64,000 nt of DNA from an uncultured Chloroflexia bacterium (GCA_963748625.1 CAVVJT010000007.1:160001-224000); one strand, 5' to 3'; numbered from the stretch's first letter, positions 1,574 through 60,436 are shown. A program made the numbers and translations. Notes: generated by a model not told the origin, from the sequence alone.

Positions 1574-2407
1574 TCAGTCGACGAGGTCGATCGACTCCCC
1601 CGGGCTGAGGATCTGCACCGGCACGTCGGGTGCGAGCCGTGCTGCGGCATCCGCGAAGAGACGGCCCGGCCGCTCGAACGGCTTGGGGACCACGGACCGC
1701 AGCAGGGCCGGGTAGAACGTCCCCCAGTGGATGGGCACCGCCAGCTTCGGCCGGAGCAGCGCCGCCGCCTGGGCCGCGCGCTCCGGGTCCATGTGGCCAG
1801 GGCCGATGTTGGGACCCCAGCCCCAGACCGGGAGGAGGGCCACATCGAGCGTCCCCGCCATGTCGGCCATCGCCGGGAAGATGTCGGTGTCACCCGGGAA
1901 GTAGATGGTCTTCGAGCCCTCGATGACGCAGCCGATGGGCGGCCCTTCCGGCCCGAACGGCTCCCGGCGCCGTGAGTGCAGCGCCTCGGTGACGGTGAAG
2001 TGCACGCGGTCGATCGTGAGCCGGTCGCCGGGCTCCACCTCCTCCACCGGGCCCAGGTCGAACTTGCGGACCATGTCGCCGAACCCCTTGGGCACGATGA
2101 CCGTGGGTCGCCCGGGGATCTGGCGCAGGGACGGGATGTCGAGGTGGTCGTGGTGCCCGTGGCTGATGAACACGGCGTCGAGGTCGGCGAACAGCTCGGG
2201 GAGCACGGCCTGCACCTGGCGCCGAACCGGTCCCAGGCCGTCCCGCAGCACGGGGTCGGTCAGGATGCGCAGGTCGTCCACCTCGATCAGGAGGGTCGCA
2301 TGCCCGAGGAAGGTGAGACGGGCGCGCTCCGGCCCGGACGCCCTGGCGGGCGCGGCGGCGCGGACGGATCGCCACGTGGCATCGACGGCGGCGGGGCGGG
2401 GCGGCAT
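1574..2407 (-). CDS. MBL-fold metallo-hydrolase (Lactamase_B_2-like)
   Basis: Motifs TFLGHATLLIE, LTDP, SHGHHDHLD, YFPGDT, PIHWGTF. Start estimated at ATG 2407. Confidence 0.88.
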   Translation of the reverse strand: MPPRPAAVDATWRSVRAAAPARASGPERARLTFLGHATLLIEVDDLRILTDPVLRDGLGPVRRQVQAVLPELFADLDAVFISHGHHDHLDIPSLRQIPGRPTVIVPKGFGDMVRKFDLGPVEEVEPGDRLTIDRVHFTVTEALHSRRREPFGPEGPPIGCVIEGSKTIYFPGDTDIFPAMADMAGTLDVALLPVWGWGPNIGPGHMDPERAAQAAALLRPKLAVPIHWGTFYPALLRSVVPKPFERPGRLFADAAARLAPDVPVQILSPGESIDLVD

Positions 2408-2591
2408 GACGTCATGGTGCCGTAAAAGGTGGACGGCCGCCCGAGCAGACCACAATCCGCCGCCGCAACGTGAAACCTTGGACCGCAAACATGTATCAAA
2501 GGGGTGGGCCACACATAGCACTAACGGCCTCTTGTGTCCTGCGTCCTGACCACTGACGCTGTCGCCCAACGTCTGCCCGAGGTGTCCCCCG

Positions 2592-2867
2592 TTGCTCTCC
2601 CAGATGCTCGGACGCGATCGCGCCAAACGCGAGGCCCTCGTGTCCGGGCGCGTGGTGGCCGAGGCCTCCCGGTGCGTGGAGTGCGGGATCTGCGCCTACA
2701 ACTGCCCGCTGGGCATCGACGTGCGCAGCCACGCCCGCCAGGGCATCCCGGTGGCGGACAACCGCTGCCTCACGTGCGGTGAGTGCGTCGCCCGGTGTCC
2801 ACGCGGCACGCTTCGCTTCGAGACATCGGCGGTGTTCACGGGAGACCTCGAGGTCGTGGGCCGATGA
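2592..2867 (+). CDS. 2x[4Fe-4S] ferredoxin
   Basis: CVECGICAYNCP and CLTCGECVARCP. Stop overlaps the next ATG (ATGA). Start may be ATG 2604. Confidence 0.9.
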   Translation: MLSQMLGRDRAKREALVSGRVVAEASRCVECGICAYNCPLGIDVRSHARQGIPVADNRCLTCGECVARCPRGTLRFETSAVFTGDLEVVGR

Positions 2868-4180
2868 GCGCCAGGTACGTGGTCGTGGGCAACGGCGCGG
2901 CCGGGGCATCAGCGGCATGGGCCCTCCGGGCCCGCGATCCCGAGGCCGACATCACCATCGTGGGCGACGAGAAGGTCCCGTTCTACTCGCGGCCCGGGCT
3001 CGCCTACATGCTGCTGGGCGTGATCCCGGACAAGCAGGTGTTCTCGCGTCCCGACAAGCGCTACCAGGAGGCCCGCATCAACCGGGTGACTGCCAGGGTG
3101 GCCGCGATCGAGCCCGCGCCCCACAGGCTGCTCACCGAGGACGGCAGGGTGCTCCGCTACGACCGTCTGCTGCTCGCACTGGGCGCCGGCGCCACCTTGC
3201 CCTCCATCCCCGGCATCGATCTCGAGGGCGTGGTCACGCTCGATGACTACGAGGGCACCAAGGAGATCATCAAGCTCGCCTCCAAGGCGAAGCGGGCCGT
3301 CGTCGTGGGTGGTGGCATCACCGCCCTCGAGCTCGCGGAGGGCCTGGTGGCCCGCGGTGTCGAGACGCACTACCTCATGCGCGGAGAGCGCTACTGGGCG
3401 AACGTGCTCGACCCGTCCGAGTCCGCCCTGGTCGAGGAGCACCTCGTCGCGGGCGGCATGCGGCTCCACAAGGGCGTGGAGCTCGCCGAGGTCATCGGGC
3501 GCAAGGGCAAGGTCAGCGGCGTCCTCACCAAGGACGGGCGCGAGATCGCCTGCGACATGGTCGGCGTGGCGATCGGCGTGCAGCCGCGCACGGGCCTCGC
3601 CTCCGCGATCGGCCTGCGGACCGGCCGCGGGATCTTCGTGTCGGAGTCGTTCGAGACCGACCTTCCGGACATCTACGCCGCGGGCGACTGTGCCGAGGTC
3701 TTCGACCCCGCGACCGGGAGGCGCTCCGTGGACGCGCTCTGGTCGATCGCCAACGAGCAGGGCCGCGTGGCCGCCGACAACATGGCGGGCCACCGCACCA
3801 CCTACCTGCGCCCTGCCCCGTTCAACGTGACCAAGATCGGGGGCATCACCACCACCGTCATCGGCGCGGTGGGCACCGGCGCCAAGGACGACGACCTCGT
3901 GTCGCTCTCGCGCGGCGACACCTTCGTCTGGCGCGAGCAGCTCGCCGACTTCACCACGGTCACCACGCACGGCACCAACCGCCTGCGCCTTGTCGTGGGC
4001 CATGACCGCATCGCCGGTGCGGTGGTCATGGGCGACCAGGCCCTCTCGCGCCGCCTCCAGCACATCGTGCGCGCACCAATCGACATCTCCCACGTCCGCG
4101 AGCACCTGCTCGACGGCTCCAACGACCTGCGCTCGGTCCTTGCGTCCCTGGCCGAGGGGAGCGCCATGGGTGTCACGTAA
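2864..4180 (+). CDS. NAD(P)/FAD-dependent oxidoreductase (pyridine nucleotide-disulphide family, NirB/rubredoxin reductase-like)
   Basis: VVVGNGAAG FAD site, VVVGGGITALE NAD site, IYAAGD motif. Confidence 0.9.
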   Translation: MSARYVVVGNGAAGASAAWALRARDPEADITIVGDEKVPFYSRPGLAYMLLGVIPDKQVFSRPDKRYQEARINRVTARVAAIEPAPHRLLTEDGRVLRYDRLLLALGAGATLPSIPGIDLEGVVTLDDYEGTKEIIKLASKAKRAVVVGGGITALELAEGLVARGVETHYLMRGERYWANVLDPSESALVEEHLVAGGMRLHKGVELAEVIGRKGKVSGVLTKDGREIACDMVGVAIGVQPRTGLASAIGLRTGRGIFVSESFETDLPDIYAAGDCAEVFDPATGRRSVDALWSIANEQGRVAADNMAGHRTTYLRPAPFNVTKIGGITTTVIGAVGTGAKDDDLVSLSRGDTFVWREQLADFTTVTTHGTNRLRLVVGHDRIAGAVVMGDQALSRRLQHIVRAPIDISHVREHLLDGSNDLRSVLASLAEGSAMGVT

Positions 4181-4844
4181 TCAGGAACTCGTCGCCGCGC
4201 TGATCACGGTCATCGTGGTCTCGGCGCTCTATATCGGCCTCTCGGCGTACTGGGGCGTGCCGCCCTCCTCTGGCCCCCTCGGCCACGGCATTGGCGTCAT
4301 CGGGTTCGGCCTGATGCTCCTGACCGAGGTCGGCTACTCGAGCCGCAAGCGCTCCACCGGCCGGCCCCGGGGCACGATGGCCTCGTGGCTGGGCTTCCAC
4401 ATCTACACGGGGATCGTGGGGCCGTATCTCGTGCTGCTGCACACCGCGTGGCACTTCAACGGCCTGGCCGGGCTGCTCACGCTGATGATGGCCATGGTCG
4501 TGATCTCCGGGTTCATCGGGCGCTACATCTACACCGCGGTGCCGCGGACTGCTGACGGCGCCATCCTCGAGGCGGCGGAGATCAGCCGGCTGCTCGACGA
4601 GGCCCGCGCCGAGGCCGAGGCCGCCCACGCCGCAGGAGCGACGCGCGACCAGGCCGCCCTCAAGCGCGAGAAGGCCGCCACGAAGCGCCTGCGCACGCTC
4701 GAGCGCCAGATGGCCTCGCTGCGCTGGGCACGGCGGGCGCTCGCGACCTGGCACACCCTCCACATCCCGCTCGGCATGGCCATGTTCGTGACCGCGTTCG
4801 CGCACATCGCCGGCGCCCTCTACTTCGCAACGCTCTCCTGGTGA
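4170..4844 (+). CDS. Integral membrane protein with intramembrane histidines (putative cytochrome b-like)
   Basis: GTG at 4170 after GAGGGGA. About 5-6 hydrophobic segments with LGH, WLGFH..LLH, WHTLH and FAH. Confidence 0.7.
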   Translation: MSRNQELVAALITVIVVSALYIGLSAYWGVPPSSGPLGHGIGVIGFGLMLLTEVGYSSRKRSTGRPRGTMASWLGFHIYTGIVGPYLVLLHTAWHFNGLAGLLTLMMAMVVISGFIGRYIYTAVPRTADGAILEAAEISRLLDEARAEAEAAHAAGATRDQAALKREKAATKRLRTLERQMASLRWARRALATWHTLHIPLGMAMFVTAFAHIAGALYFATLSW

Positions 4845-4848
4845 TGCC

Positions 4849-7065
4849 ATGACGATGCAGCGACGACCGTTCGGATGCCTCACCGGGATCGCCCTGGTGT
4901 TCGGCACGCTGACCGTGATCCTGCTCGTGGCGGCGGCCCTCGCGACCGCCAACGGCATCTTCGCGCCCGGTCCCCTCAACGCGGAGAAGGCGGAGACCGC
5001 CCTGCACGGGATCAGCTCCCACGCGGACCTCGCCGGCCGGTGCGACGCGTGCCACGCCCAGGCCTGGTCGGCTGAGCGGATGGCTGACAAGTGCCTCGCC
5101 TGCCATGAGAGCGTCGGTGACGAGCTTGCCGCCGGCACGGGCCTCCACGGCCGGTTCGCAACGTCAGGGCAGTGCCGCGGCTGCCACACGGAGCACGGCG
5201 GAACCACGGCCTCGCTCACGGTCGCGAACCCGGCCACCTTCCCGCACGCCAAGACCGGCTTCTGGCTGGATGCGCATCCCGTCGCCCAGCGGCTCGACGC
5301 GTTCACGTGCGCGGACTGCCACCAGGACTCGGTGAGCAAGTTCACGGCCTCCTCCTGCCAGACCTGCCACACCGAGGAGGACCCCGCCTACATGGCGGAG
5401 CACGTGGATGCGTTCGGCACCGGGTGTCGCAACTGCCACGATGGCATCGACACCTACGGCGCGGACTTCGCCCACGCGAGCTGGAAGCTCGAGGGCAAGC
5501 ACGCGGACACGTCGTGCGCGATGTGCCACGCGGGCGACACGACCATCCTCGAGCTCCAGGACACCTCGACCGCCTGCATCTCCTGCCATGCCAAGGAGGA
5601 CATCCACGAGCGGCGCCTGGGCTCGGACTGCGCCAGCTGCCACACGGCTGCCACGTGGGAGGAAGCGCCCGACGACTTCGACCATGACCAGACGACGTTC
5701 GCGCTCAAGGGCGGTCACACCGAGGTCGAGTGCCTCGGGTGCCACGTGGACCGGGCGTGGACCGGCATCGGGACGACCTGCGAGTCCTGCCACGCCGCGG
5801 ACGACCCGCACAACGGGCAGTTCGACCAGCCGTGCGCCTCGTGCCACACCGAGTCGGACTGGAAGGAGACGACGTTCGACCACGCGACGACGCGCTTTGC
5901 GCTGGTTGACGCGCATGCGAAGCCGGAGTGCTCCGCCTGCCATGCGGACGGGAAGTTCACGGGCACCCCGATGACCTGCTATGCCTGCCACAAGGCGGAT
6001 GACGAGCACAAGGGCAACGTCGGCAAGCAGTGCGAGGAGTGCCACGTCGCCACGACCTGGGCGGACACCACCTTCACCCACGCCCAGTCCGACTTCCACC
6101 TCACCGGCGCCCACACGGATGCGCTCTGCGTGAAGTGTCACGCGACGCTGACCGAGTACCGCGGCACACCCACCACGTGCTTCGCCTGCCACAAGGACGA
6201 CGATGAGCACAAGGGCGAGTTCGGGACGGACTGTGCCTCCTGCCACAACACCCGCGACTGGGACGACGTGACGTTCGACCATGCGAAGACCGACTTCCCG
6301 CTCACGGGTGCCCATCGCTCGGCGACGTGCTCCAAGTGCCACACGGACTCGACGTTCAAGAACACACCAACCTCGTGCGTGTCCTGCCACCGCGCCGACG
6401 ACGCCCACAACGGGTCGCTGGGCACGAACTGCGCGAAGTGCCACTCCACCCGGGCTTGGGAGCCGGCCACGTTCGACCACGCCACCACCGGTTTCAAGCT
6501 GACCGGCGCCCACGTGAGCACCACCTGCCGGAAGTGCCACACGAGCACGACCTACGCGAACGTCCCGAGCACCTGCTACGGCTGCCACAAGCAGGACGAC
6601 GAGCACAACGGCGGTTTCGGGACCAAGTGCAACGCCTGCCACACGACCCGCAGCTGGTCCGGGGCGACGGTTGATCACAGCAAGACGGACTTCCCGCTCA
6701 CGGGCGCCCACAAGTCCGTGAGCTGCGCGAAGTGCCACAAGAACAACGTGTACTCGGGCACGCCCACGGCCTGCAATGCCTGCCACAGCAAGCCGAGCAC
6801 GCACCAGCCGGATTCGTTCTCCGCCTGCAGGAGCTGCCACACAACCGGGGCGTGGAAGCCCGCCGACTTCAACCAGGCGCACTCGTTCCCGATGGGACAC
6901 CGCAACGCCGACGGCGTCTGCAGCAAATGCCACACGGGTTCGTGGGCGGTCTACACGTGCTCGCGGTGCCACTCGGACACGAAGATGAACGAGAAGCACA
7001 GGGAGGTCTCAGGCTTCTCGCTGAACACGTGTGCGAAGTGCCACCCCAAGGGCGAGGGAGACTGA
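4849..7065 (+). CDS. Membrane-anchored or exported multiheme cytochrome c, 30 CxxCH motifs
   Basis: 30 CxxCH motifs counted by eye. N-terminal RR plus hydrophobic helix; ~66 aa repeating tri-heme module. Confidence 0.95.
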   Translation: MTMQRRPFGCLTGIALVFGTLTVILLVAAALATANGIFAPGPLNAEKAETALHGISSHADLAGRCDACHAQAWSAERMADKCLACHESVGDELAAGTGLHGRFATSGQCRGCHTEHGGTTASLTVANPATFPHAKTGFWLDAHPVAQRLDAFTCADCHQDSVSKFTASSCQTCHTEEDPAYMAEHVDAFGTGCRNCHDGIDTYGADFAHASWKLEGKHADTSCAMCHAGDTTILELQDTSTACISCHAKEDIHERRLGSDCASCHTAATWEEAPDDFDHDQTTFALKGGHTEVECLGCHVDRAWTGIGTTCESCHAADDPHNGQFDQPCASCHTESDWKETTFDHATTRFALVDAHAKPECSACHADGKFTGTPMTCYACHKADDEHKGNVGKQCEECHVATTWADTTFTHAQSDFHLTGAHTDALCVKCHATLTEYRGTPTTCFACHKDDDEHKGEFGTDCASCHNTRDWDDVTFDHAKTDFPLTGAHRSATCSKCHTDSTFKNTPTSCVSCHRADDAHNGSLGTNCAKCHSTRAWEPATFDHATTGFKLTGAHVSTTCRKCHTSTTYANVPSTCYGCHKQDDEHNGGFGTKCNACHTTRSWSGATVDHSKTDFPLTGAHKSVSCAKCHKNNVYSGTPTACNACHSKPSTHQPDSFSACRSCHTTGAWKPADFNQAHSFPMGHRNADGVCSKCHTGSWAVYTCSRCHSDTKMNEKHREVSGFSLNTCAKCHPKGEGD

Positions 7066-7070
7066 CCTCG

Positions 7071-7139
7071 GGCGGTGGCGCGCCCGCACTCTCGGCGGCG
7101 CAGCGCCCGCACTCGCGGCGGTGGCGCGCCCGCACGACT
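7071..7139. repeat. Three tandem 23-bp repeats (GGCGGTGGCGCGCCCGCACTC..)
   Basis: Units start at 7071, 7094 and 7117. Confidence 0.8.
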
Positions 7140-7144
7140 TGATC

Positions 7145-7310
7145 AGGCTCGCGCCGGGTGGGAGCCATCCGGCGCGACGTGCGCATACCACACCTGGGGT
7201 GCGCCAACGGACCCGACGCGGCCTTCGGACCGCCATACGCCCACCAGGCAGGAGCAAACGCATCTCCCGGCCCGGTGACATCCGCTACGTCCCACCTGGC
7301 GGGAGATTGG
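7145..7310 (+). repeat. Intergenic repeat family B, copy 1 (four palindromic CCCACCnGGTGGG-like units)
   Basis: Units near 7146, 7185, 7235 and 7285; spacing 40/50/51 is the same as at 38001-38165. Confidence 0.75.
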
Positions 7311-7322
7311 CAACGCGGGGGG

Positions 7323-7370
7323 TTGACATTCAGCATTCATCATGCATCCTAACGTTCAGCAATTGCTGAA
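7323..7370 (+). promoter_or_regulatory. Sigma70-type promoter with palindromic operator for the ArsR-MFS operon
   Basis: TTGACA at 7323-7328, perfect palindrome TTCAGCAATTGCTGAA at 7355-7370, extra half-site TTCAGCA at 7329. Confidence 0.7.
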
Positions 7371-8056
7371 TGGTTAGTGGAGCACAAACGTTGACCCCCG
7401 ACGGAACACCCGCCCAGGAGCGCGATCTCGACCCCGGCTTCGAGCCGGAGGAGGTCCGGTACATCCGCGACGTCGAGACGCTCAAGGCGCTCTCCGACCC
7501 CACCCGGGTGCGGATCCTGGAGGTCATGGTCCAGCGCCGGTCCCCGGCCTGGTCGGTCAAGGAGATCGCGGCAGCCCTCGGCGTGCCGCCGACGCGCCTC
7601 TACCACCACGTGGACCTGCTGTTGGCTCAGGATCTCCTGCGGCCGGTGGAGCGCCGCGTGGTGTCCGGGATCATCGAGACCCGGTACGTCCCGGCCGCCC
7701 GGTCCTTCCAGCTCGACCGCTCGCTGTTCGCGGGCGATGGAGCCGAAGGCCTGGCGGTCCTCCACGAGACGATGGTCGCGGTGTTCGACACCGCGCGCTC
7801 GGAGGTCGAGCGAGCGATCCGAGCCGGTGCCGCCGATCCGGGTGACACCGGCGACGAGAGCCGGCGCCTCCTCGTCTCGCGCGGCCTCACCCACCTCACG
7901 CCCGCCCGTGCCGCTGAGCTTCGTGCCCGCCTGCAAGCCCTCGCCGATGAGTTCGGGGGCGAGCAGGACCCGGTGGATGCGCCCGGCGCCCTGACCTACG
8001 GACTGGTCGTGGCGGTCTATCCCCTCCTCGATCCCCAGGAGTCCCCCGATGACTGA
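7370..8056 (+). CDS. ArsR-like helix-turn-helix transcriptional regulator
   Basis: LKALSDPTRVRIL..SVKEIAAALGVPPTRLYHHV. True start may be TTG 7391 (GGAG upstream). Confidence 0.88.
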   Translation: MVSGAQTLTPDGTPAQERDLDPGFEPEEVRYIRDVETLKALSDPTRVRILEVMVQRRSPAWSVKEIAAALGVPPTRLYHHVDLLLAQDLLRPVERRVVSGIIETRYVPAARSFQLDRSLFAGDGAEGLAVLHETMVAVFDTARSEVERAIRAGAADPGDTGDESRRLLVSRGLTHLTPARAAELRARLQALADEFGGEQDPVDAPGALTYGLVVAVYPLLDPQESPDD

Positions 8057-9404
8057 CGTCCCCAGCGCGGCCGACACCGCTGCACGCGATCCCGGCGTGC
8101 GCGATCCCGGCGTGCGCGACCTTCTGCGCCTGCCCGACTTCCGGCGCCTGTACCTCGCCCAGGCGATCAGCGACCTCGGCGACGCGATGACCTACATCGC
8201 GCTGTTCCTGCTGGTGTTCGCCCTGACGGGCTCCGCCGGTGCGGTGGCGGTGATGTCGATCCTGGTGGCGCTGCCTCCAGTGGTCGTGGGCCTGTTCGCC
8301 GGCGCCTACGCGGACCGGCACGACCGGCGCCGCATCATGATCGCGTCCGACACGGCACGGGCGCTGGTCGTCGCGATCATGGCGCTCGCCGCCGCTGCCG
8401 GCTCCGTCCCCCTGCTCTTCGTCCTCGCGACCGTCCAGGCGGTGGTTGGCACGTTCTTCGGGCCGGCTCGCATCGCGCTGGTCCCGCGTGCGGTCCCCGA
8501 GGCCGGCCTGCTCGCCGCCAACTCCCTCGGCCAGGCGACGCGCATGGTGATGAGCGTGGTCGGGGCCGGGATCGCCGGCGTCGTCGCGGGCGTGCTCGGG
8601 TTCGCATGGCCCGTGCTGGTGCTCGATGCCGCCACGTTCATGGTCTCTGTGATCCTCGTCCTCCGCGTGACGCCGGCGCTTGGCCTTCCGCAGGCGGCGA
8701 GGGCCGGCGCATCTGCCGCCCGGGAGGGCATCGGCACCGCGGTGATGGAGGGCCTGCGCATCGTGGCCCGCTCACGCACGCTGGTCGCCGCCCTGGGCGG
8801 CGTGGCCGTCACCATGCTGGGCGTCGGTGCGATCAACGTCCTGTTCATCCCATTCCTGGTCCGCGACCTTGGTGCCAGCCCCGCCTGGGCCGGGCCCCTC
8901 GAGGCAGCCCAGACCGTGTCGATGATCCTCGCGGGCTCGATGGTGACGACGCTGGCGGCCCGCCTGCAGCTGCCCCGGCTGTTCACCGGCGGCATCGCGG
9001 GGATGGCCGTGTGCGTGGCGCTGCTGGCCTTCGCGCCCGGCCCATGGGCCCTGCTGCTGATCATGTTCGCGGTCGGCTGGTTCGTGATGCCGGTCCAGGC
9101 TGCAACCATGACGCTGGTCCAGCGGGCGACGACGGACGCCACGCGGGGACGCGTCGGCGGGGCGCTGAACGCGGCCATCCAGGCGGCCTCGATCGGGTCG
9201 ATGGCGCTGGCCGGGATCCTCGCGGACATGGTCGGGATCCGCGCCGTGTTCCTGGGTGGAGCGGCGATTGCGGGCCTGGCGGCCGTCCTTGCCTGGCTCC
9301 TGTTCCGCGGCGCCGACCCGGCAGAGCTCGGGCTGGTCAGACCAGCGGCAAGCGCGGAGGAGGCGAGCCCGGAGGCGGCGAGCCCGGAGGCGGCCGCCGC
9401 CTGA
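8049..9404 (+). CDS. MFS transporter (DHA3/MFS_3-like)
   Basis: FRRLYLAQAISDLGD, GAYADRHDRRRIMIASD; about 12 TM segments. Confidence 0.9.
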   Translation: MTDVPSAADTAARDPGVRDPGVRDLLRLPDFRRLYLAQAISDLGDAMTYIALFLLVFALTGSAGAVAVMSILVALPPVVVGLFAGAYADRHDRRRIMIASDTARALVVAIMALAAAAGSVPLLFVLATVQAVVGTFFGPARIALVPRAVPEAGLLAANSLGQATRMVMSVVGAGIAGVVAGVLGFAWPVLVLDAATFMVSVILVLRVTPALGLPQAARAGASAAREGIGTAVMEGLRIVARSRTLVAALGGVAVTMLGVGAINVLFIPFLVRDLGASPAWAGPLEAAQTVSMILAGSMVTTLAARLQLPRLFTGGIAGMAVCVALLAFAPGPWALLLIMFAVGWFVMPVQAATMTLVQRATTDATRGRVGGALNAAIQAASIGSMALAGILADMVGIRAVFLGGAAIAGLAAVLAWLLFRGADPAELGLVRPAASAEEASPEAASPEAAAA

Positions 9405-19144: not shown

Positions 19145-22100
19145 TCAGCCTGTCGCCGCGGTGCCGGACTCGTCCGGGGTCCCGGACTCGTCCAGGGCGC
19201 TGGCGACCTCCGTCGCCGTGGGGGCGCCGGTGGTCTCGGGCAGCACCACTTCGATCGTCGTGCCCTGGCCGGGCCCCGTGCGGACGTCCATCGTCCCGGC
19301 GAGGCGCTCGGTGCGCGCACGCATCCCGGCGATGCCCAGGTGGCCGTCGGGCACCGCTGCCGGATCGAACCCACGCCCATCGTCCGTGACGACCATGCGG
19401 ACGCCGTCGGGCACCCGGCCGATCCCGATCCGGACCTCCCGAGCGCCTGCATGCTTGACGACGTTGTGGAGTGCCTCCTGGGCGATCCGGTAGAGCGCCT
19501 CCTCGAGCTCGATCGGCGGACGGTCGACCGCGAGGTCGGCATCGGCCTCCACGACCACCGGCAGCCCGATCCGCCCGGAGAGTGACGCGCCGTGGGTGCG
19601 CAGCGCCTGGATCAGCCCGTACTCCTCGATGTTGCCGGGCCGGAGCTCGAAGATCAGCGCCCGCATCTCGGCGAGCGCGTCGCGCTGGAGCTCACGCAGG
19701 GACGCGAGCCGTTGGGGCACCTGGGCCGGATCCCGATCGAGCAGGATCTCGATGCTCCTCGAGACCAGGGTCATCGAGAACAGCGCCTGGGTCACCGAAT
19801 CGTGCAGCTCGCGGGCCAGGTGCGCCCGCTCCTCGGATGCCGCGATCTCGGCCGCCTGGCGGCGCAGGTCCATCTCGAGGCGCTCGAGATCGCTGACGTC
19901 GCGGGCGACGCCGTGCGCGCCGATGAACCGGCCCCCAGCGACCATCCCGATCGCCGTCACCTCCATCGAGCGCTCCCGGCCGTCCCGCCTGAGCACGCGG
20001 AACCGGGTCCGGTGGGTCTCGGCGGGCCGGCGCTGGAGCATCCGGAAGCGGGCGATCGTGCCCCGCAAGGCCAACGGTGGTGCAAGGTCCTCGAAGCGCC
20101 GGCCAACCAGCTCGGTGGCTGGCCACCCCAGGATCCGCGTCGCCTGGTCGGAGACGAAGGTGAAGCGGCCGTCGGCGTCGGTCATCCAGATCAGGTCGGG
20201 CGAGGACTGCACCAGGAAGCGGTAGCGCTCCTCGGATTCACGGAGCTCCCGTTCCAGGCGCTCCCGGTCGCGAATGTCGCGCGCGGCGCCGTGGACGCCG
20301 GCGAACACGCCGTCCATGCGCATGGCGGATGCGGTCACCTCGAACGGGATGTACTCCCCGCTCGCGCCGAGCAGGTCCATCCGTGAGGTGAGCGAGTTGC
20401 GGCCGACCACCATCTCGGCGAACCGCCGGCCGGCCGGGACGCCATCGGGCGTGCGCACGATCTCGCGGAAGTGCAGGCCCACCAACTCCGAGGCCGACCG
20501 ACCGAGCGCCTGCTCGACCGACTCGGAGAAGTAGGTGACCCGGCCATCGGCGTCGGTCGCGTAGATGATGTCGGGCGAGTTCTCGACCAGGAAGCGGTAG
20601 CGCTGCTCTGACGCCTCGAGCCGGGCGAGGAGATCCGAGTTGGAGATGGCGATCGCTGCGTGATCGGCCAGCGCCTGGAGGGTGGCGAGGCGGTCCTCGG
20701 CGATGGGCTGGGGACGCTGGTAGCTCACCGCGAGCGTGCCGATGACCTCGCCACCGGGCTCCCGGAGGGGGGCGGCGGCCATCGCGCCGAGGCCCATGAT
20801 CCGGGCTACCTCCACGTCGTCCGCGCCATGGGGGATCCGCGGATCGGCGGCGTAGTCGGGCGTCCAGGTCACATGGCCAGTGGACGCCGCGAGGCCGTTG
20901 AGCCCCCCGTCGAGCGCGAACGACTGGCTCCCGAGCCAGCGCCGGGTCGCGTCGTCCAGGCGGCCCGCGATGACCGCCGGGCGCAGGGCGGCACGGTCCT
21001 CGCTCATGCGCGTCAGGTGCGCCCCGTCGGACCCGAGCACCCGGCGAGCCTCCTCCACGACGTCCTGGAGCAGCGTCGCGGGATCCTGGAGGGTCATCAT
21101 GCGGCGCGCGATCTCGCGCAGGGCGCGTTCGGCGTCGGCCGTGCGCTCCAGCGCCGTCTGCGAGGCTGTCAGGCGGTCCGCGAGGCGGGCGTTGGCCACG
21201 GCGATCGACACCTGGCCCGCGAGCGCGTCGATCAGCCGGAGAGCATCCGCCCCGAAGGCATCCACGTCGCGATGGCCCGCCTGGAGCACGCCCAGCAGGC
21301 CGTCCTCACCCACGACCGGGGCCGCCACCACCGCGCGCAGGCCGACGTCCCGGACCCCCGCGTCGCCCTCCTCGTAGTGCGTGAAGCGGGTGTCGGCAAG
21401 ATAGTCACGAGCCACCACGGCCCGGCCCTCGCGGATGGCGAGCCCGGCGAGACCCACCGGTGGCTGCCCGTCCGGCATGTCCAGTCGAAGGGCGTCGGGG
21501 AACGGGGTGTCGGCCGGAAAGCCCAGCAGGTGTGACCCGGACACCGGCTCCACGAGGTCCAACCGCGCCCGCTCGGCGCCGAGGAGACGCGCCGCCTCGT
21601 GGACGATGCGGTCGAGCGTGGCCGCTGGATCCTCACCCAGGCGGCCCAGTCGGCCGGCGATCTCGCGCAGCGCCTGCTCCTCGTCCGCGCGCCGGGCGAG
21701 CGTCTCGCGTGACCGCCCCAGCTCCTCGATGAGACGTGCGCGACCCAGGGCGACGGCCGCCTGGCCGGCGATCGTCTCCAGCAGCGCGGCATCGGCCGCA
21801 TCGAATGCGTCGGGCTCCGTGGACCAGACCGTGATGGCCCCGAATGGTCCCGTCTCGCCGAGCAGGGGCGAGGCGATCACTCCACGGATCCCCTTGCTGC
21901 TGGCATAGGTGTCCGGGCCGAACCCATGGACGAGTTGAGGATCGCTGAGGTAGTCGGGGCTGATGTACGTCAGGCCGGTGGTGACGGCGCGACCCGACGC
22001 TCCCACCTCCAGGGTGTCGTTGGGGTCCCGCGGCCACTCGGTCTCGAGGATCTCCTCCTCGCCCGACGAGTAGGCTCCACGCAGCAGGTTGACCTCCGGG

Positions 22101-22861
22101 TCGACCAGGTCGATGCGGGCGCCCTCACCGTGGAGCAGGCGGCGTGCCTCGTCGATGGTGTGCTGGACGACCGCCTCCGGGTCACGCGCGCCCGAGATCC
22201 GCGTGCCGAGCTCCCGCAGCGACCGCTCCACGAGCGCCGTGCGGGCCAGCGCTTCGCGCGACCGGTCGAGCTCCTCGATCAGGCGGGCGTTGGCCATGGC
22301 GAGTGCCGCGTGGTCGGCGAGGGCCCGCACCAAACCGATCTGGGGAGCGTTGAAGAAGTCCTCGTCGGCCGAGAAGGTGCCCAGCGCCCCGAACACCTCG
22401 TCGCCCGCGATCATCGGCGCCGCCACGAGCGAGCGGAGGCCGACCTCCTTCGCGAACCGGTCCGACTCCGCATTGTGGATGAACGTGCCGTCGCGAAGGT
22501 AGTCCCCGGTGACGACCACCCGCCGCGTGGCGACGGCGCGCCCGAACAGCCCGACGCCCGCCGGCAGCTCGAGACTGCGCATGAAGTGATCCGCGGGCAG
22601 CTCGGCGATCCCTGCGTGGTACCGGAAGCGGAGGCGGTCTACGGCAGGGTCGTAGAGGTAGGCGAAGGCGCCGTCGGCGCCGAGCAGGCGGCGGACCTCG
22701 TCGCACGCGCTGCGCAGGAGCGCGTCCACGCCGGGCGCGAGGTGGCCGTCACCGGGCGCGGGCTGGCGGCCGGGCTGGAGGCCGACGGCGGGCACGGGCT
22801 GGAGGCCGGGCTGGCCGGCGGCGGGAACGGTCACGGGACGGGCATCTGCCTCACGGTGCAC
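19145..22861 (-). CDS. Cytoplasmic sensor histidine kinase: 4 GAF + 2 PAS + HisKA_3 + HATPase
   Basis: ERAHLARELHDSVTQ, EALHNVVKHA, DDGRGF, HLGIAGMR; four GAF-like repeats ending in LA..AA.A; two ENSPD/QSSPD PAS starts. Confidence 0.92.
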   Translation of the reverse strand: MHREADARPVTVPAAGQPGLQPVPAVGLQPGRQPAPGDGHLAPGVDALLRSACDEVRRLLGADGAFAYLYDPAVDRLRFRYHAGIAELPADHFMRSLELPAGVGLFGRAVATRRVVVTGDYLRDGTFIHNAESDRFAKEVGLRSLVAAPMIAGDEVFGALGTFSADEDFFNAPQIGLVRALADHAALAMANARLIEELDRSREALARTALVERSLRELGTRISGARDPEAVVQHTIDEARRLLHGEGARIDLVDPEVNLLRGAYSSGEEEILETEWPRDPNDTLEVGASGRAVTTGLTYISPDYLSDPQLVHGFGPDTYASSKGIRGVIASPLLGETGPFGAITVWSTEPDAFDAADAALLETIAGQAAVALGRARLIEELGRSRETLARRADEEQALREIAGRLGRLGEDPAATLDRIVHEAARLLGAERARLDLVEPVSGSHLLGFPADTPFPDALRLDMPDGQPPVGLAGLAIREGRAVVARDYLADTRFTHYEEGDAGVRDVGLRAVVAAPVVGEDGLLGVLQAGHRDVDAFGADALRLIDALAGQVSIAVANARLADRLTASQTALERTADAERALREIARRMMTLQDPATLLQDVVEEARRVLGSDGAHLTRMSEDRAALRPAVIAGRLDDATRRWLGSQSFALDGGLNGLAASTGHVTWTPDYAADPRIPHGADDVEVARIMGLGAMAAAPLREPGGEVIGTLAVSYQRPQPIAEDRLATLQALADHAAIAISNSDLLARLEASEQRYRFLVENSPDIIYATDADGRVTYFSESVEQALGRSASELVGLHFREIVRTPDGVPAGRRFAEMVVGRNSLTSRMDLLGASGEYIPFEVTASAMRMDGVFAGVHGAARDIRDRERLERELRESEERYRFLVQSSPDLIWMTDADGRFTFVSDQATRILGWPATELVGRRFEDLAPPLALRGTIARFRMLQRRPAETHRTRFRVLRRDGRERSMEVTAIGMVAGGRFIGAHGVARDVSDLERLEMDLRRQAAEIAASEERAHLARELHDSVTQALFSMTLVSRSIEILLDRDPAQVPQRLASLRELQRDALAEMRALIFELRPGNIEEYGLIQALRTHGASLSGRIGLPVVVEADADLAVDRPPIELEEALYRIAQEALHNVVKHAGAREVRIGIGRVPDGVRMVVTDDGRGFDPAAVPDGHLGIAGMRARTERLAGTMDVRTGPGQGTTIEVVLPETTGAPTATEVASALDESGTPDESGTAATG

Positions 22862-41452: not shown

Positions 41453-42976
41453 TCAGCCGGCGGCGACCCCCGGCACGAGGTCGACCAGGGCCTCGCGCAG
41501 CAGGCGCTCGTGCTCCGGCGTGGTGTAGTCGAGCAGCGGGTGCCCCGGGAGCTGGTGCTCGTGCAGGAAACCGTGCTCACGGATGAAGACCATGGGGTAG
41601 ATGCTCCCCTGCCCGTCAGCCTCGACCGTCATCGCGATCAGGTCCTCGGCGTGGCCGTCGAGGGCGTGGACAAGCGGCACGACGCCCTGGTCGCGGACGC
41701 CCTCGTCCGGCGTGACCGTCACCACGCGTGCGAGATAGCCCTTCTGGTGCCACAGCTCCGAGCGGTTCGTCGCCTCTCCAAGCAGGAGGCCGACGAGATC
41801 CTCGGGCGCGACGGACGGGCGCTCCTCCCGGAGACCGAAGTGGGTCCCGGCAATGTGCCTGGCGAGCAGCATCGAGTTGTAGCGGTGCCCGTGGACGGCG
41901 CCCGAGTAGGACGGGATACCGTGCCGGCGCATGCCGGGCGAGGCCTGGCTGATCGTGCCCGCGAAGTAGATGCCGGGCACGGTGGCACTCTCCCACATCG
42001 TGGTGACGGCAGGAAGCTTCGCCTGGCCGAACGTCGCCACGCCGAGATCCGGCAGGTCCTGCAGCGGGCACGTGAAGCCGGTGGCCGCGATGACCTCATC
42101 CGCTTCCACCACCATCTCCTCGCCCGTGTCGCTCCGGCTGACGCGGACCGCGTAGGCATCGCCCACGTGGTCGATCGCCAGGATCGACGCGGCCAGGATC
42201 TTCACGCCCAGGCCGAGGTAGGCGTCCTCGAACGGCTGCACGTAGCGGGCGCGGACGCCCACGAGCGACTTCGTCTCGAGCGCGGTCTTCGCGGGACTGG
42301 GCGAGCAGACGGTGATGGACGACGCCCAGGCCGCCAGGCCGGACGCAAGCTCGAACCCGGAGTTCTGCTTGCCGATGATGAACAGCCGCTTGCCCGCGTA
42401 GTAGGAGGGCTCCTGCGTGTCCGCGTAGTGGCGCGCATGCTCGATGCCGGGCTTCGCGGGGCTCCACGGCTGGGCCACGCCGACGGCGAGGACCAGGATC
42501 CGGCAGCGGTACTCGCCCGCGGTCGTATCGAGCACGAACGTGGTCCCGTCGGGACCCTCCTCCTTGCGCGTGCGCTCCCAGCGGGTGGCGTAGCGGACCG
42601 TGATGCCCGCGCGCTCGGCGAACGCCTCGAGGTTCGCCTGCATCTCCGGGCGGGACGGGTAGTAGGTGGTGCCGTCCATGAACTCCGCCTGGAGCGAGCG
42701 GAGCTCGGGCTCGTCGGCGAGGAGGCTGTTCCAGTCGTAGCGCTGGTACTCGGGCGCCGTCCGGTCCACCGGTGCGTACGGCTTGGTCCACGAGAGGAGG
42801 CGCTGGAAGAAGGGCCACTTGCGGAACATGCCGCCAGCGCCATCGTCCGCGGAGAGGACCGCGTGGGGCACGCCGTACTTGCGCAGGCCGTAGGAGACCT
42901 GAAGACCACCCGGGCCGGAGCCGATGACGATGACCGGGTATTCGCCCGGCGGGAACGGCCGGGTATCCGTCTCCAC
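41453..42976 (-). CDS. FAD/NAD(P)-dependent oxidoreductase (flavin monooxygenase/Pyr_redox_3-like)
   Basis: IGSGPGG, GGMF, YPSR, IIGKQNSGFE, IAATGF, GIYFAG. Confidence 0.85.
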   Translation of the reverse strand: METDTRPFPPGEYPVIVIGSGPGGLQVSYGLRKYGVPHAVLSADDGAGGMFRKWPFFQRLLSWTKPYAPVDRTAPEYQRYDWNSLLADEPELRSLQAEFMDGTTYYPSRPEMQANLEAFAERAGITVRYATRWERTRKEEGPDGTTFVLDTTAGEYRCRILVLAVGVAQPWSPAKPGIEHARHYADTQEPSYYAGKRLFIIGKQNSGFELASGLAAWASSITVCSPSPAKTALETKSLVGVRARYVQPFEDAYLGLGVKILAASILAIDHVGDAYAVRVSRSDTGEEMVVEADEVIAATGFTCPLQDLPDLGVATFGQAKLPAVTTMWESATVPGIYFAGTISQASPGMRRHGIPSYSGAVHGHRYNSMLLARHIAGTHFGLREERPSVAPEDLVGLLLGEATNRSELWHQKGYLARVVTVTPDEGVRDQGVVPLVHALDGHAEDLIAMTVEADGQGSIYPMVFIREHGFLHEHQLPGHPLLDYTTPEHERLLREALVDLVPGVAAG

Positions 42977-42978
42977 GT

Positions 42979-43401
42979 TCAGCTCCGCCAGCGGTTGGCG
43001 TTCCGAAGGCGGCGCGCCTGGGCCTGGAGCATCCGGAACATGACGTGCGGGTAGGCGAGCAGGAACGGCTGGACGGAGGGACCGGGCGCAACGATGCAGG
43101 TGAGGGTCGTCTGGGCGACCACGTCGGCGGTGGGCGGCTCACCCAGCAGGATGCTGACCTCGCCGAAGAACTCGCCCCGATGCAGGACGTTCCGGCTGAC
43201 CCCGTCGATGACGACCTCCGCCGAGCCCTCGAGGATGATGTAGAAGCCCGAGCCGGTCAGGCCCTGGCGCAGGATCCGCTCACCCTGCGGGAACACCGTC
43301 TCCTCGAACAGCCCCGCGACGCCCAGCAGCTGCGGCGTCTGGAGATCTCCGAAGAGCGCGAACCCGGCGAGGATGTCGGCCAGCTCCTCTCGCGTGGCCA
43401 C
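42979..43401 (-). CDS. Stand-alone cyclic nucleotide-binding domain protein
   Basis: ILRQG..FYIILEG..GEFFGEVSIL..TADV; GGAGGAGG RBS before GTG. Confidence 0.88.
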   Translation of the reverse strand: MATREELADILAGFALFGDLQTPQLLGVAGLFEETVFPQGERILRQGLTGSGFYIILEGSAEVVIDGVSRNVLHRGEFFGEVSILLGEPPTADVVAQTTLTCIVAPGPSVQPFLLAYPHVMFRMLQAQARRLRNANRWRS

Positions 43402-43606
43402 GGTGTCGTCCTCCTCCACTCCCCGGTCGACACGGCCACGCACCCGGGGCCGCTGCGGGATACTCGCACAGAACGAGGTCCCGGTGCTTGGCGGTTGGCC
43501 GACGCCCCGCGGCCGGCTCGGGAGCGCCCTGTCGCGGGCGTACGATGCACTCCATGCAGGCGACCAGCGAGACCCCGAGGACGGATCGCACCGTCCCCGT
43601 GGCAAC

Positions 43607-55659: not shown

Positions 55660-55682
55660 CCGGCAGCGGCAAGGAGGAAGCG

Positions 55683-55961
55683 GTGGCAACCCTGTTCGCG
55701 ATGCCGAAGCTCGGCATGAACATGGAGGAGGGCGTCCTCGTCGGGTGGCTCGTGGCCGAGGGGTCCGAGGTCCGGACGGGCCAGCCCATCCTCGAGATCG
55801 AGACCGACAAGACGACGGTCGAGCTCGAGGCGACGGCAGACGGCGTGCTCGCCCGGATCGTCCGGGCCGCGGGCGACACCGTCCCGATCAACGGCGTCCT
55901 CGCGGTGATCCTCGCCCCCGGCGAGGCGCTGCCTGACGACATCCCGGACTCGGCCGTATGA
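55683..55961 (+). CDS. Stand-alone lipoyl domain protein
   Basis: MPKLG..MEEG, EIETDKT; own AGGAGG RBS and stop. Confidence 0.9.
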   Translation: MATLFAMPKLGMNMEEGVLVGWLVAEGSEVRTGQPILEIETDKTTVELEATADGVLARIVRAAGDTVPINGVLAVILAPGEALPDDIPDSAV

Positions 55962-56006
55962 CGGTTGTGCGTCGTGTCTCACCCCAGCCAGTGAACTGAG
56001 GCGAAG

Positions 56007-59193: not shown

Positions 59194-59255
59194 TCGAAGC
59201 AGCCCGACCCAGCTGGCGCCCGAGGGTCACGCACCCTCGGGCTGGAAGGACGTCC

Positions 59256-60389: not shown

Positions 60390-60436
60390 CCGACCGCCAC
60401 CCACCTCCGACGGGACCTGTAGAGGGAGCGAGACTG

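Follow-up and report, generated by a model that had tools for sequence, protein, structure and literature searches.

Multihaem c-type cytochromes conduct electrons between the cytoplasmic membrane and the cell surface in MtrCAB and PcbA-type Pcc systems as well as in Thermincola and Carboxydothermus, whose Gram-positive cytochrome chains reportedly achieve surface electron transfer without a porin. These porin-cytochrome and Gram-positive systems draw on the quinone pool, and electrons are known to enter extracellular electron transfer routes through quinol oxidases. In the GSU1996-like c7-type polymer cytochromes of Geobacter, tandem triheme units line up into a long chain of haems; GSU1996 itself is said to use His-Met ligation at one haem per unit. 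NOX, the ferric reductases and MsrQ-Fre couple a cytoplasmic NAD(P)H flavoprotein with an FNR-type domain to an acceptor outside the membrane (O2, Fe3+ chelates or MsrP). NOX holds two stacked bis-His b haems with a pair of His on each of two helices, spaced 14 and 13 residues apart, and both NOX and MsrQ have six helices. MsrQ, paired with the soluble Fre reductase, is described as splitting this design over two polypeptides that serve a periplasmic protein (PMC5676040). Small membrane proteins of the DUF4405, PepSY-like and FezC kinds, with six helices, four central conserved His and either ApbE flavinylation or ferrosome clusters, are proposed in PMC11334425 to move electrons across the cytoplasmic membrane, and that source also reports a DUF4405 protein purified with haem b. 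Finally, AorC-AorA of tungsten aldehyde oxidoreductase and PadH-PadI of phenylglyoxylate dehydrogenase each pair a Pyr_redox_2 flavoprotein with a 4Fe-4S subunit, connect NAD(H) to a cluster chain, and feed soluble catalytic subunits.

The locus described here lies in a window of 64,000 nt (the whole stretch of DNA analysed, from which all coordinates are counted) of an uncultured Chloroflexia bacterium (GCA_963748625.1, CAVVJT010000007.1:160001-224000). ORF calling and translation gave four translationally coupled genes on the + strand at 2640-7065: a cytoplasmic 2x[4Fe-4S] ferredoxin (75 aa, 2640..2867), an FAD/NAD(P)H flavoprotein of the ferredoxin/rubredoxin-reductase type (438 aa, 2864..4180), a five-helix membrane protein (224 aa, 4170..4844) and a membrane-anchored 30-haem c-type cytochrome (738 aa, 4849..7065). 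The first two share a 4-nt ATGA overlap (ATG 2864 on the stop codon at 2865-2867), the flavoprotein and membrane-protein genes overlap by 11 nt (GTG 4170 versus the flavoprotein stop at 4180), and a 4-nt gap (4845-4848) precedes the cytochrome's ATG 4849. These coordinates match the two overlaps and 4-bp gap given in a preliminary description of this DNA, and the ferredoxin, flavoprotein, His-bearing membrane protein and 30-haem cytochrome that it named are all seen as + strand ORFs. Its span of 2592..7065 stands at the 3' end but probably not at the start: ATG 2604 and TTG 2592 (+ strand) are alternative ferredoxin starts upstream of GTG 2640, and GTG 2640 is more likely than TTG 2592, since the orthologue alignment begins there and 2592-2626 overlaps a divergent metallo-beta-lactamase-fold gene (1574-2626, - strand, from ORF calling and a Pfam scan). 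Third-position G+C is 0.88-0.93 in the four frames, like that of other window genes. Cytochrome c maturation families (Ccs, Ccm), which the preliminary description had not seen in the window, were not found by Pfam among its 52 scanned ORFs, several of which had no match at all.

To follow the operon across genomes, the membrane protein served as bait in a species-representative genome collection searched by sequence pattern, where 499 of 514 pattern-matching stretches encode a relative of it. All 80 loci fetched come from Chloroflexota. When the count is restricted to the 64 loci with at least 1700 nt upstream and at least 1300 nt downstream, 62 carry the ferredoxin, the flavoprotein and a same-strand multihaem cytochrome beside the membrane gene, 49 of the 64 in identical contiguous order. 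Tight coupling is conserved as well, with median junction spacings of +1, -14 and +13 nt (52 related loci). Clustering of 3723 flank ORFs showed that only the four families occur in more than 13 of the 80 loci; there is no fifth. Among the exceptions, one locus of the 80 (L057) has the membrane gene alone, one (L020) lacks the ferredoxin and half of the flavoprotein, and one (L073) has no cytochrome within 5.6 kb downstream. Lineages named after aerobes, fermenters and phototrophs (Oscillochloris and Viridilinea among the last) bear the operon, and one common respiratory role is therefore not obvious.

The ferredoxin has two CxxCxxCxxxCP motifs and matches Pfam Fer4_9 (E 8e-10), with Fer4_7, Fer4_10 and Fer4 also exceeding their cut-offs; no NCBIfam model reached its own. 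All eight Cys are retained in 31 of 32 aligned orthologues, the single exception having a start placed too late. In the orthologue alignment (A2), C15, C18, C22, C43, C46, C49 and C53 are invariant and C12 is kept in at least 90% of the sequences. The flavoprotein matches Pyr_redox_2 (E 2e-53) and Pyr_redox (E 4e-12) in Pfam, and among solved proteins it is closest to the FAD subunit of a tungsten aldehyde oxidoreductase (8c0z_E, E 4e-45), then to rubredoxin reductases, ferredoxin reductases and NADH oxidases. Rossmann folds for FAD and NAD(P), the lack of a redox-active Cys and a translationally coupled ferredoxin partner give it the attributes of a ferredoxin/rubredoxin-NAD(P)+ reductase. 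Its YSRPGLAY motif, which contains no Cys, is invariant among orthologues and occupies what we take to be the position of the redox Cys in CoA-disulfide reductases and NADH oxidases. At the dinucleotide site R173 and R176 are invariant: the 'VVE' of 8c0z_E and 3fg2_P aligns over a 'YLM' that R173 follows, so that the acidic residue of NADH-type sites is a Met here, with an invariant Arg next to it. The enzyme may possibly prefer NADPH over NADH. No NCBIfam equivalog reached its cut-off, which places the flavoprotein outside every named enzyme family; the best NCBIfam neighbours, none of which reaches its cut-off, include PadH (E 4e-50) and PadI (E 3e-6). Like AorC-AorA and PadH-PadI, the pair at this locus joins a Pyr_redox_2 flavoprotein to a 4Fe-4S partner that would connect NAD(P)H to a cluster chain; its predicted docking partner, however, is a membrane cytochrome in place of a soluble catalytic subunit. 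Since the potential of 2x[4Fe-4S] ferredoxins often lies below that of NAD(P)H, the flavin-to-cluster step may run uphill.

The membrane protein has five hydrophobic segments, eight His and K/R-rich loops at 59-71 and 117-198. Its AF2 model (pLDDT 76.6) has helices at 5-28, 36-63, 70-92, 98-154 and 161-223, and model and topology together indicate a long cytoplasmic helical hairpin of roughly 70 residues. The model matched no solved fold at E <= 0.001 and the sequence matched none in the PDB; no Pfam family exceeded its cut-off and NCBIfam gave no match. Four His stand out: H77 and H91 on helix 3 and H198 and H212 on helix 5, both pairs at i/i+14. They are invariant in close relatives (A1) and in a branch at 21-40% identity (A5), and in 98 diverse sequences, a set that includes representatives at no more than 50% mutual identity, they are retained in 95, 94, 81 and 79 members respectively, most misses being gaps in fragments. 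By the positive-inside rule, H77 and H198 lie towards the cytoplasmic side of the membrane, with H91 and H212 towards its exterior. This is the layout of two stacked b haems, and we predict that the protein is a di-haem b cytochrome. The arrangement, two pairs on two helices with a spacing of about 13-14 at an inner and an outer level, is that of the ferric reductase superfamily (NOX, FRE, STEAP, MsrQ), which has six helices where this protein has a predicted five. The Ferric_reduct model itself did not match the window protein at E <= 0.01 and found relatives only at E 0.0068-0.039, under its 28-bit cut-off, so that, unlike enzymes with the NOX/ferric-reductase domain, the family shows no significant match. 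DUF4405 (PF14358) was the sole Pfam family touched, at E 0.009 and 16.9 bits against a cut-off of 26.7, and the best score among relatives is 23.8 bits (P0263); the protein is not assigned to that family. Relatives also gave sub-threshold matches to Ni_hydr_CYTB. One relative with a precomputed PF14358 label is from Bacteroidota, into which this unnamed family extends. In distant relatives, natural fusions join a 2Fe-2S domain to the membrane domain (P0262) and a 4Fe-4S dicluster domain to a related one (P0282, two member sequences). Two flavoprotein-membrane fusions (P0275 and P0278, one sequence each) could be indel artefacts, because the two genes overlap.

Modelling of the complex points to where the soluble pair may bind. 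When the flavoprotein, the ferredoxin and two haems were modelled against the membrane protein the docking score was 0.63, compared with 0.01 for the best of three controls; 116 of 157 solved complexes and 2 of 215 mismatched pairs pass the mark in the tool's calibration, counts that hold only roughly here because we used our own alignments and a riding ligand, both outside that calibration. The runs share at least 40% of contacts, with a partner pLDDT of at least 73. In the model, ferredoxin residues 20-25, 44, 46 and 48, which flank C22, C43, C46 and C49, touch membrane residues 64-74 and 121, the former just before H77, supporting a predicted docking site on the cytoplasmic loop beside that His.

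The cytochrome contains exactly 30 CXXCH motifs, 61 Cys and 62 His. Pfam Cytochrome_C7 (PF14522) matches it in eight stretches (E 7e-37, 125.5 bits versus a cut-off of 24.8) and Cytochrom_c3_2 matches too, while NCBIfam TIGR04257 (nanowire_3heme) scores 30.5 bits, under its cut-off of 40. Residues 271-666 form about six tandem 66-aa units, each contributing three CXXCH motifs plus three other His, and with repeated Cytochrome_C7 domains of three CXXCH each the protein is, for the most part, a c7-type triheme polymer. Beyond the CXXCH motifs there are 32 His and 8 Met; the free His would allow bis-His ligation at all haems, leaving no obvious catalytic haem, unlike GSU1996 with its one His-Met haem per unit. 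Haem Cys and His and the distal His are invariant in aligned columns; for the haem Cys and His this lends indirect support to a functional c-type cytochrome. Relatives carry 15 to 42 haems in steps of three. A further difference from GSU1996-like proteins is the conserved N-terminal membrane anchor: an RRxLGC-like motif, a hydrophobic helix and an FSPG-type motif recur among the 49 neighbouring cytochromes listed. The co-encoded cytoplasmic electron-input module is another.

On balance we favour, with some confidence, the reading that the four genes form a single NAD(P)H-to-surface electron-export module that bypasses quinones, a split NOX-like conduit with a modular triheme wire. This reading is based on domain content, conservation of cofactor ligands, co-conservation of the four genes, the modelled docking site and the Fe-S fusions in relatives; the cofactors themselves are read from sequence. 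Hydride would pass from NAD(P)H, possibly NADPH by preference, to the flavoprotein FAD, which would deliver single electrons to the small ferredoxin acting as a bound Fe-S subunit. With its cluster II set against the loop between helices 2 and 3, the ferredoxin would reduce the inner b haem (ligands H77 and H198), and from there electrons would move to the outer b haem (H91 and H212) and on to the 30-haem cytochrome, tethered alongside by its N-terminal helix. The bis-His triheme chain could then carry them through the wall to Fe(III), humics or partner cells, or store charge. We infer the outward direction, the extracellular acceptor or charge storage, and the physiological role, which is probably NAD(P)+ regeneration without energy conservation at this step, because outward electron movement dissipates the membrane potential. 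The host's envelope is taken to be monoderm from literature cited in PMC7399161, not from this sequence. The preliminary description had proposed that electrons could pass between NAD(P)H and the exterior without a porin, in contrast to Mtr/Pcc systems. Its reading is supported by the synteny, the near-invariant His pairs with their spacing and the lack of a porin: of the results that it said would refute it, failure of co-conservation is countered by the 62 loci, and membrane His that are neither conserved nor paired are countered by the H77/H91 and H198/H212 pairs. The complex modelling that it had suggested supports docking of the pair by H77.

Compared with NOX and MsrQ-Fre, the predicted module has the same overall logic, with stacked haems on helices 3 and 5 as in NOX. 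It differs in its five predicted helices for their six, in its His spacing of 14 on both helices, in its two-dinucleotide-fold flavoprotein, in the 2x[4Fe-4S] ferredoxin inserted between flavin and haem, and in having a 30-haem cytochrome as acceptor. Relative to DUF4405, PepSY-like and FezC proteins as described in PMC11334425, the small protein with four central His has five helices, the long cytoplasmic hairpin, no ApbE, and a fixed association with the ferredoxin, the flavoprotein and the multihaem cytochrome. Neither an ApbE flavin transferase nor an FMN-binding lipoprotein occurs in the window operon or as a conserved neighbour in the 80 loci, which sets the cluster apart from flavin-based extracellular electron transfer (Ndh2, EetA/B, PplA, ApbE/FmnB). 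Nor does it belong with Mtr/Pcc: a Pfam scan found no porin-like gene beside the window operon, and no beta-barrel porin or second cytochrome partner is conserved across the 80 loci. Where those systems and the Gram-positive chains are quinone-fed, the conserved partners here are a cytoplasmic ferredoxin and an NAD(P)H flavoprotein. We found no published description of this four-gene module in the literature. It may tentatively represent an undescribed class of conduit for wall-bounded, porin-less bacteria, though we would not put this at even chances: a split NOX-like NAD(P)H:extracellular-acceptor oxidoreductase in which the ferredoxin-flavoprotein pair connects straight to a new family of five-helix di-haem b cytochromes, the N-terminal helix of the multihaem cytochrome supplies a sixth helix in trans, and the wire's length, 5 to 14 triheme units with 15-42 haems, is adjusted to envelope thickness. 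If this is true, many Chloroflexota could vent reducing power without quinones.

The same outward conduit might instead be an NADPH-driven housekeeping reductase, one that reduces ferric iron for assimilation, provides repair or protection against external oxidants, or poises the redox state of the wall. Such a role would parallel the yeast ferric reductases and MsrQ-MsrP. The Met and R173 of the dinucleotide site hint at NADPH, the cofactor of anabolism and defence, and the module is found across lineages of very different energy metabolism; the third result of a protein-language search, a lead only, was a cluster automatically named 'Iron reductase' (score 0.89). A precedent is offered by MsrQ and a cytosolic flavin reductase feeding a periplasmic enzyme (PMC5676040). 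We nevertheless consider this unlikely: a wire of 15-42 haems is a high iron cost for iron acquisition, no molybdoenzyme, peroxidase or transporter is conserved next to the module (flank clustering, 80 loci), and the haems all appear to be bis-His, leaving no obvious substrate site. A different entry point is also conceivable, in which the membrane protein would work like CymA, CbcL or ImcH as a quinol:cytochrome c oxidoreductase, passing electrons from menaquinol to the multihaem cytochrome. The ferredoxin-flavoprotein pair would then have an indirect part in feeding or regulating it, perhaps that of an NAD(P)H:quinone reductase acting through the same b haems. A quinol oxidase has no need of a cytoplasmic Fe-S flavoprotein, yet both partners are kept in 62 of 64 loci, relatives of the membrane protein occur fused to Fe-S domains, and the docking model would set cluster II on the inner-haem side. 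H39 and E53, invariant in close relatives, could line an outer-side site, but H39 is retained in only 62 of 98 diverse members and H195 in 51. Even with the quinol-oxidase precedent of known systems, the frequent quinone sites of di-haem b cytochromes and the weak matches of relatives to Ni_hydr_CYTB, a quinone-reactive family, this seems to us quite improbable.

Export by the proposed NAD(P)H-fed module could, lastly, be reversed, with Fe(II), reduced humics, a cathode or a partner cell feeding the cytochrome and electrons passing through the b haems, ferredoxin and flavoprotein to NAD(P)+. We give this very little credence, since it would oppose both the inside-negative membrane potential and the potential gap to NAD(P)+, while nothing in the 224-aa five-helix protein resembles ion-translocating machinery that could cover the cost and no energy-coupling subunit is conserved nearby (flank clustering, 80 loci). 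In principle, electrons can run either way through multihaem wires and Fe-S/flavin modules, and the operon is present in the phototrophic lineages noted above. A cultured Chloroflexota filament is reported to give both anodic and cathodic current (PMC5808234); the largest cytochrome described for it in that source has 7 haems, and it is therefore not this module.

The ferredoxin, flavoprotein, membrane protein and cytochrome are encoded by four plus-strand ORFs within 2592–7065 of the window. Their third-position G+C of 0.88–0.93, in a window of ~70% G+C, is the codon bias of real genes. The preliminary description had them as four tightly coupled genes, and this layout is correct, because the junctions are tight as measured: the flavoprotein start (ATG 2864) shares 4 nt (ATGA) with the end of the ferredoxin gene, the membrane protein gene, from its GTG at 4170, shares 11 nt with the end of the flavoprotein gene, and a 4-nt gap precedes the cytochrome ATG (4849). 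One start was adjusted: the ferredoxin probably begins at GTG 2640, since the alignment of orthologues begins there and 2592–2626 is part of a divergent, opposite-strand gene of metallo-beta-lactamase fold. Long antisense ORFs (e.g. 5164–6999, minus strand, 611 aa) were dismissed as by-products of high G+C, because at other loci antisense frames of the same length turn up only opposite the four genes, as their shadows. A scan of 2300–7500 returned no promoter-like site and one minus-strand terminator-like site, not above shuffled sequence, and is uninformative at 70% G+C in a non-model phylum. Directly downstream of the cytochrome (7370–9404) lie an ArsR-type HTH regulator and an MFS transporter, which are probably unrelated to the module since they are not conserved beside it in related loci.

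To survey synteny we used the membrane protein as bait. Its relatives numbered 2840 at E ≤ 0.001 among near-length candidates in a 90%-identity collection, and a profile search of 1.84 billion representatives gave 3393 at E ≤ 0.001 and 1701 at E ≤ 1e-10. When its alignment was run on one genome per species, 499 of 514 pattern-matching stretches encoded a relative. The best 80 of these 499 loci are all from Chloroflexota (Limnocylindria, Anaerolineae, Caldilineales and Chloroflexales, including Oscillochloris and Viridilinea), and the closest relatives of the window locus are Limnocylindria-like. Counts were based on the 64 loci whose flanks reached 1700 nt or more upstream and 1300 nt or more downstream. 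A ferredoxin, a flavoprotein and a same-strand multihaem cytochrome stand beside the membrane gene in 62 of them, so that the genes proposed to form one conduit are indeed co-conserved, and 49 of the 64 have the window's gene order, contiguously. The other 13 four-gene loci have the cytochrome(s) upstream, the membrane gene before the ferredoxin, or frameshifted genes. Median gene spacings were +1, -14 and +13 nt (52 loci). Exceptions include L020, a locus without the ferredoxin and half of the flavoprotein; L073, a short-flank locus with no cytochrome in 5.6 kb downstream; and an orphan membrane gene (L057:7950–8825) without ferredoxin, flavoprotein or cytochrome, whose neighbours are TadE/TadG-like Tad pilus genes, an HD-domain gene and unknowns, with no alternative redox partner among them.

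All-against-all clustering of 3723 flank ORFs recovered the four module families in 48–80 loci (the ferredoxin's count of 48 is low owing to a 90-aa filter), together with their antisense shadows, while any other gene family occurred in at most 13 of the 80 loci. Since only these families recur, the module consists of exactly four genes, set in varying neighbourhoods. No porin, maturation gene or further partner is part of it in the flanks of the 80 loci, which agrees with the porin-free arrangement claimed at the outset. In many loci of Anaerolineae and Chloroflexales, one or two extra multihaem cytochromes accompany the module on its strand (L037, L038, L043, L050, L053, L058, L065, L067, L068, L069, L070 and L076), typically one with 18 haems and a second, larger one, mostly with 26–42 (smaller in some). 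This suggests a relay longer than the window's at these loci.

The 224-aa membrane protein falls outside named families: its only Pfam match, to DUF4405, is below the cut-off (16.9 vs 26.7 bits), NCBIfam gave none, and the best E value of its profile against PDB sequences was 0.23. It has five hydrophobic segments, and the positive-inside rule places the N-terminus, loop 59–71 (5 K/R) and segment 117–198 (15 K/R) in the cytoplasm. In an AF2 model (pLDDT 76.6) helices 4 and 5 extend into a long cytoplasmic helical hairpin. A fold search with this model found no PDB match at E ≤ 0.001; its top matches, BAR domains and ABC-transporter helices, are driven by the long hairpin and were discarded as meaningless. 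Four His residues (H77, H91, H198 and H212) are invariant both in close relatives and in a branch of 21–40% identity, and are kept in 95, 94, 81 and 79 of 98 sequences that include 50%-identity representatives, the losses at H198 and H212 including 13 and 15 gaps from fragments. H39 and H195 are invariant among close relatives and kept in only 62 and 51 of the 98. Of the several intramembrane His residues noted earlier, four are thus both conserved and paired, H77/H91 on helix 3 and H198/H212 on helix 5, each pair spaced i/i+14 with one His predicted near either membrane face.

In NOX-type ferric-reductase domains, described in PMC5676040 as having six helices and four conserved His, two stacked b haems are held by this layout. 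The four-His haem arrangement is likewise reported for DUF4405, PepSY-like and MsrQ-like proteins, and haem b co-purified with a DUF4405 protein (PMC11334425). Within the membrane protein family, DUF4405, Ni_hydr_CYTB and Ferric_reduct give sub-threshold matches only. Since the His layout is shared and the family matches all lie below threshold, we treat the protein as one that would work, by analogy, like the DUF4405, PepSY-like, MsrQ-like and NOX-type wires while being a member of none. The nearest clusters in a protein-language atlas are unnamed or called 'Iron reductase' (0.89–0.91) and serve as leads only.

On the cytoplasmic side, the ferredoxin (75 aa) is of the clostridial type, with two canonical CxxCxxCxxxCP motifs whose eight Cys are all kept in orthologues. 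The flavoprotein (438 aa) is a Pyr_redox_2 enzyme (Pfam, E 2e-53). Among solved relatives 8c0z_E, which is the FAD subunit of a tungsten aldehyde oxidoreductase, ranks first, ahead of reductases of rubredoxin and ferredoxin, NADH oxidases and CoA-disulfide reductases. Where the last two groups have their redox Cys, the flavoprotein has an invariant YSRPGLAY motif free of Cys, which suggests a reductase for electron transfer and not one acting on disulfides or oxygen. Where two solved relatives have 'VVE' in the site for the pyridine nucleotide, the flavoprotein has 'YLM', and an invariant R173 comes next; this is a hint, no more, of a preference for NADPH. No NCBIfam model matched the flavoprotein at its cut-off, the nearest being the N-terminal part of NirB, PadH and CoA-disulfide reductase. 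A second Pyr_redox_3/Pyr_redox_2 flavoprotein (507 aa) is found at 41453–43605 on the minus strand, adjoining a cyclic-nucleotide-binding-domain protein; by position it is unrelated to the operon.

Three lines would link the membrane protein to this cytoplasmic pair: the coupled ferredoxin and flavoprotein genes, fusions in relatives and a complex prediction. Among database relatives, a 2Fe-2S domain is fused to the membrane domain in P0262, and a 4Fe-4S dicluster domain to a related membrane domain in P0282 (two member sequences). Flavoprotein-membrane fusions occur in P0275 and P0278, each a single sequence, and may be indel artefacts of overlapping genes. Bearing instead on the cytochrome side, P0227 (a single sequence) has the N-terminal half of the membrane protein fused to c7/c3 domains. 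Other relatives carry N-terminal GYF_2 domains (P0137, P0140, P0276 and P0277), with weak zinc-ribbon matches in P0137. A branch of ~290-aa proteins (P0283–P0401) is common among the database proteins, with mutual identities of 21–40% in an alignment that includes the window protein. Two names in this branch, Draconibacterium and Sunxiuqinia, are from Bacteroidota, so the unnamed family reaches that phylum.

In the complex prediction, the flavoprotein, the ferredoxin and two haems were modelled with the membrane protein as the scored partner. The score was 0.63, against 0.01 for the best of three controls. Of 157 solved complexes in the tool's calibration, 116 attained its mark, as did 2 of 215 mismatched pairs; these counts apply only roughly to this complex, for which custom alignments and a riding ligand were used. 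Contact agreement between runs was at least 40%, and partner pLDDT at least 73. The model supports, and does not show, binding of the ferredoxin-flavoprotein pair to the membrane protein. Its confident contacts join ferredoxin residues 20–25, 44, 46 and 48 to membrane residues 64–74 and 121. The former surround C22, C43, C46 and C49, presumably the ligands of one cluster by the standard pattern, and the latter lie in the cytoplasmic loop running into H77. Flavoprotein residues 52–55 and 163 touch membrane residues 64–68. Electrons travelling from FAD by way of two clusters to the inner haem would require this modelled geometry.

In the cytochrome (738 aa) CXXCH occurs exactly 30 times, beside 32 further His and just 8 Met, and Pfam finds eight Cytochrome_C7 stretches (E 7e-37). 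About six units of 66 aa make up residues 271–666, and every unit holds three CXXCH motifs and another three His. Given the 32 further His beside the 30 motifs, all haems can be bis-His, and the protein would therefore fit a wire rather than an enzyme. In an alignment of 24 orthologues neither the haem Cys/His nor the distal His varies. Among neighbouring cytochromes most haem counts divide by three (15, 18, 21, 24, 27, 30, 33, 36 and 42; a few do not, e.g. 17, 20 and 23), so that whole triheme units are gained and lost in evolution. Large Anaerolineales cytochromes had already been described as varying in haem number (PMC7399161). The cytochrome matched no PDB sequence at E ≤ 0.001. Its haem-free AF2 model was poor (pLDDT 62.1, pTM 0.31), and no length estimate was drawn from it; a fold search with it gave five matches only, all at E ≥ 1.9, from which nothing was drawn.

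The cytochrome N-terminus (residues 1–64, window 4849–5040) is conserved to an unusual degree, with the same region present in 48 related loci. Across 49 neighbouring cytochromes a basic RRxLGC-like motif is followed by a hydrophobic helix of ~20 residues, this by an FSPG-type motif, and this by SHA(D/E)L, the last ~60 residues ahead of the first CXXCH. The RRxLGC-like motif, with its Cys ahead of the anchor helix, is cytoplasmic; the other two motifs lie outside the membrane. G9, C10, F38 and G41 are invariant in the 24 aligned orthologues, and S39 and P40 occur in at least 90%. An N-terminus conserved in this way suggests an anchor that is kept and touches a partner, not a signal peptide that is cut off and lost, and the anchor helix may add a sixth helix to the five of the membrane protein. 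A lipoprotein reading of the conserved LGC was rejected, the Cys standing before the hydrophobic helix and not after it. Tat export was also rejected despite the RR, because c-type cytochromes are, as a rule, exported unfolded.

The best reading, and in our judgement a fairly probable one, is outward, quinone-independent transfer in which electrons would pass from NAD(P)H to FAD, two Fe-S clusters, two b haems and the c-haem wire. Electrons leaving across an inside-negative membrane would dissipate its potential, so the step would dispose of reducing equivalents and conserve no energy. The same conduit could have a housekeeping role, for instance reducing iron for assimilation or defending against oxidants, a use that we consider unlikely. 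Somewhat less likely again is a quinol oxidase, with the soluble pair acting indirectly. Inward electron uptake, energetically disfavoured and without any coupling machinery, is very improbable. The four-protein hypothesis is concrete, and its protein set is small enough for heterologous expression.

Sediments, soils, aquifers, sludge and anode communities all contain abundant Chloroflexota. In the accessible parts of PMC7399161 and bioRxiv 10.1101/2021.08.23.457424, their genomes are noted to encode large multihaem cytochromes of variable haem number, and the operon goes unmentioned there. In Ardenticatena a 7-haem surface cytochrome is described (PMC5808234). We found no worked-out account in the literature of the electron route to the large Chloroflexota cytochromes, and none of the four-gene set, with most subscription journals and supplements outside coverage and absence unproven. 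Taken singly, the parts are familiar in kind: the flavoprotein is of the ferredoxin-reductase type, the ferredoxin of the clostridial type, the membrane protein a putative four-His haem wire and the cytochrome a c7-type polymer. What is new, as far as we found, is the assembly of the four, of which we found no description. Three questions become testable: whether NAD(P)H is wired to a bacterial surface without quinones, whether the unnamed membrane family (3393 representative clusters) is a new transmembrane haem wire, and whether cytochrome length tracks envelope architecture. A compact NAD(P)H-to-electrode module would be of interest to bioelectrochemical engineering.

Elsewhere in the window, a sensor histidine kinase of 1238 aa (19145–22861, minus strand) has four GAF and at least two PAS domains and a HisKA_3/HATPase core. 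At 53564–58227 lie 2-oxoacid dehydrogenase E1 alpha and E1 beta (transketolase-type) genes, a small lipoyl/biotinyl-domain gene and then a second E1 beta-like gene. Finally, a B12-binding-domain protein followed by two URO-D-like proteins (58570–61672) looks like a corrinoid-dependent methyltransferase set.
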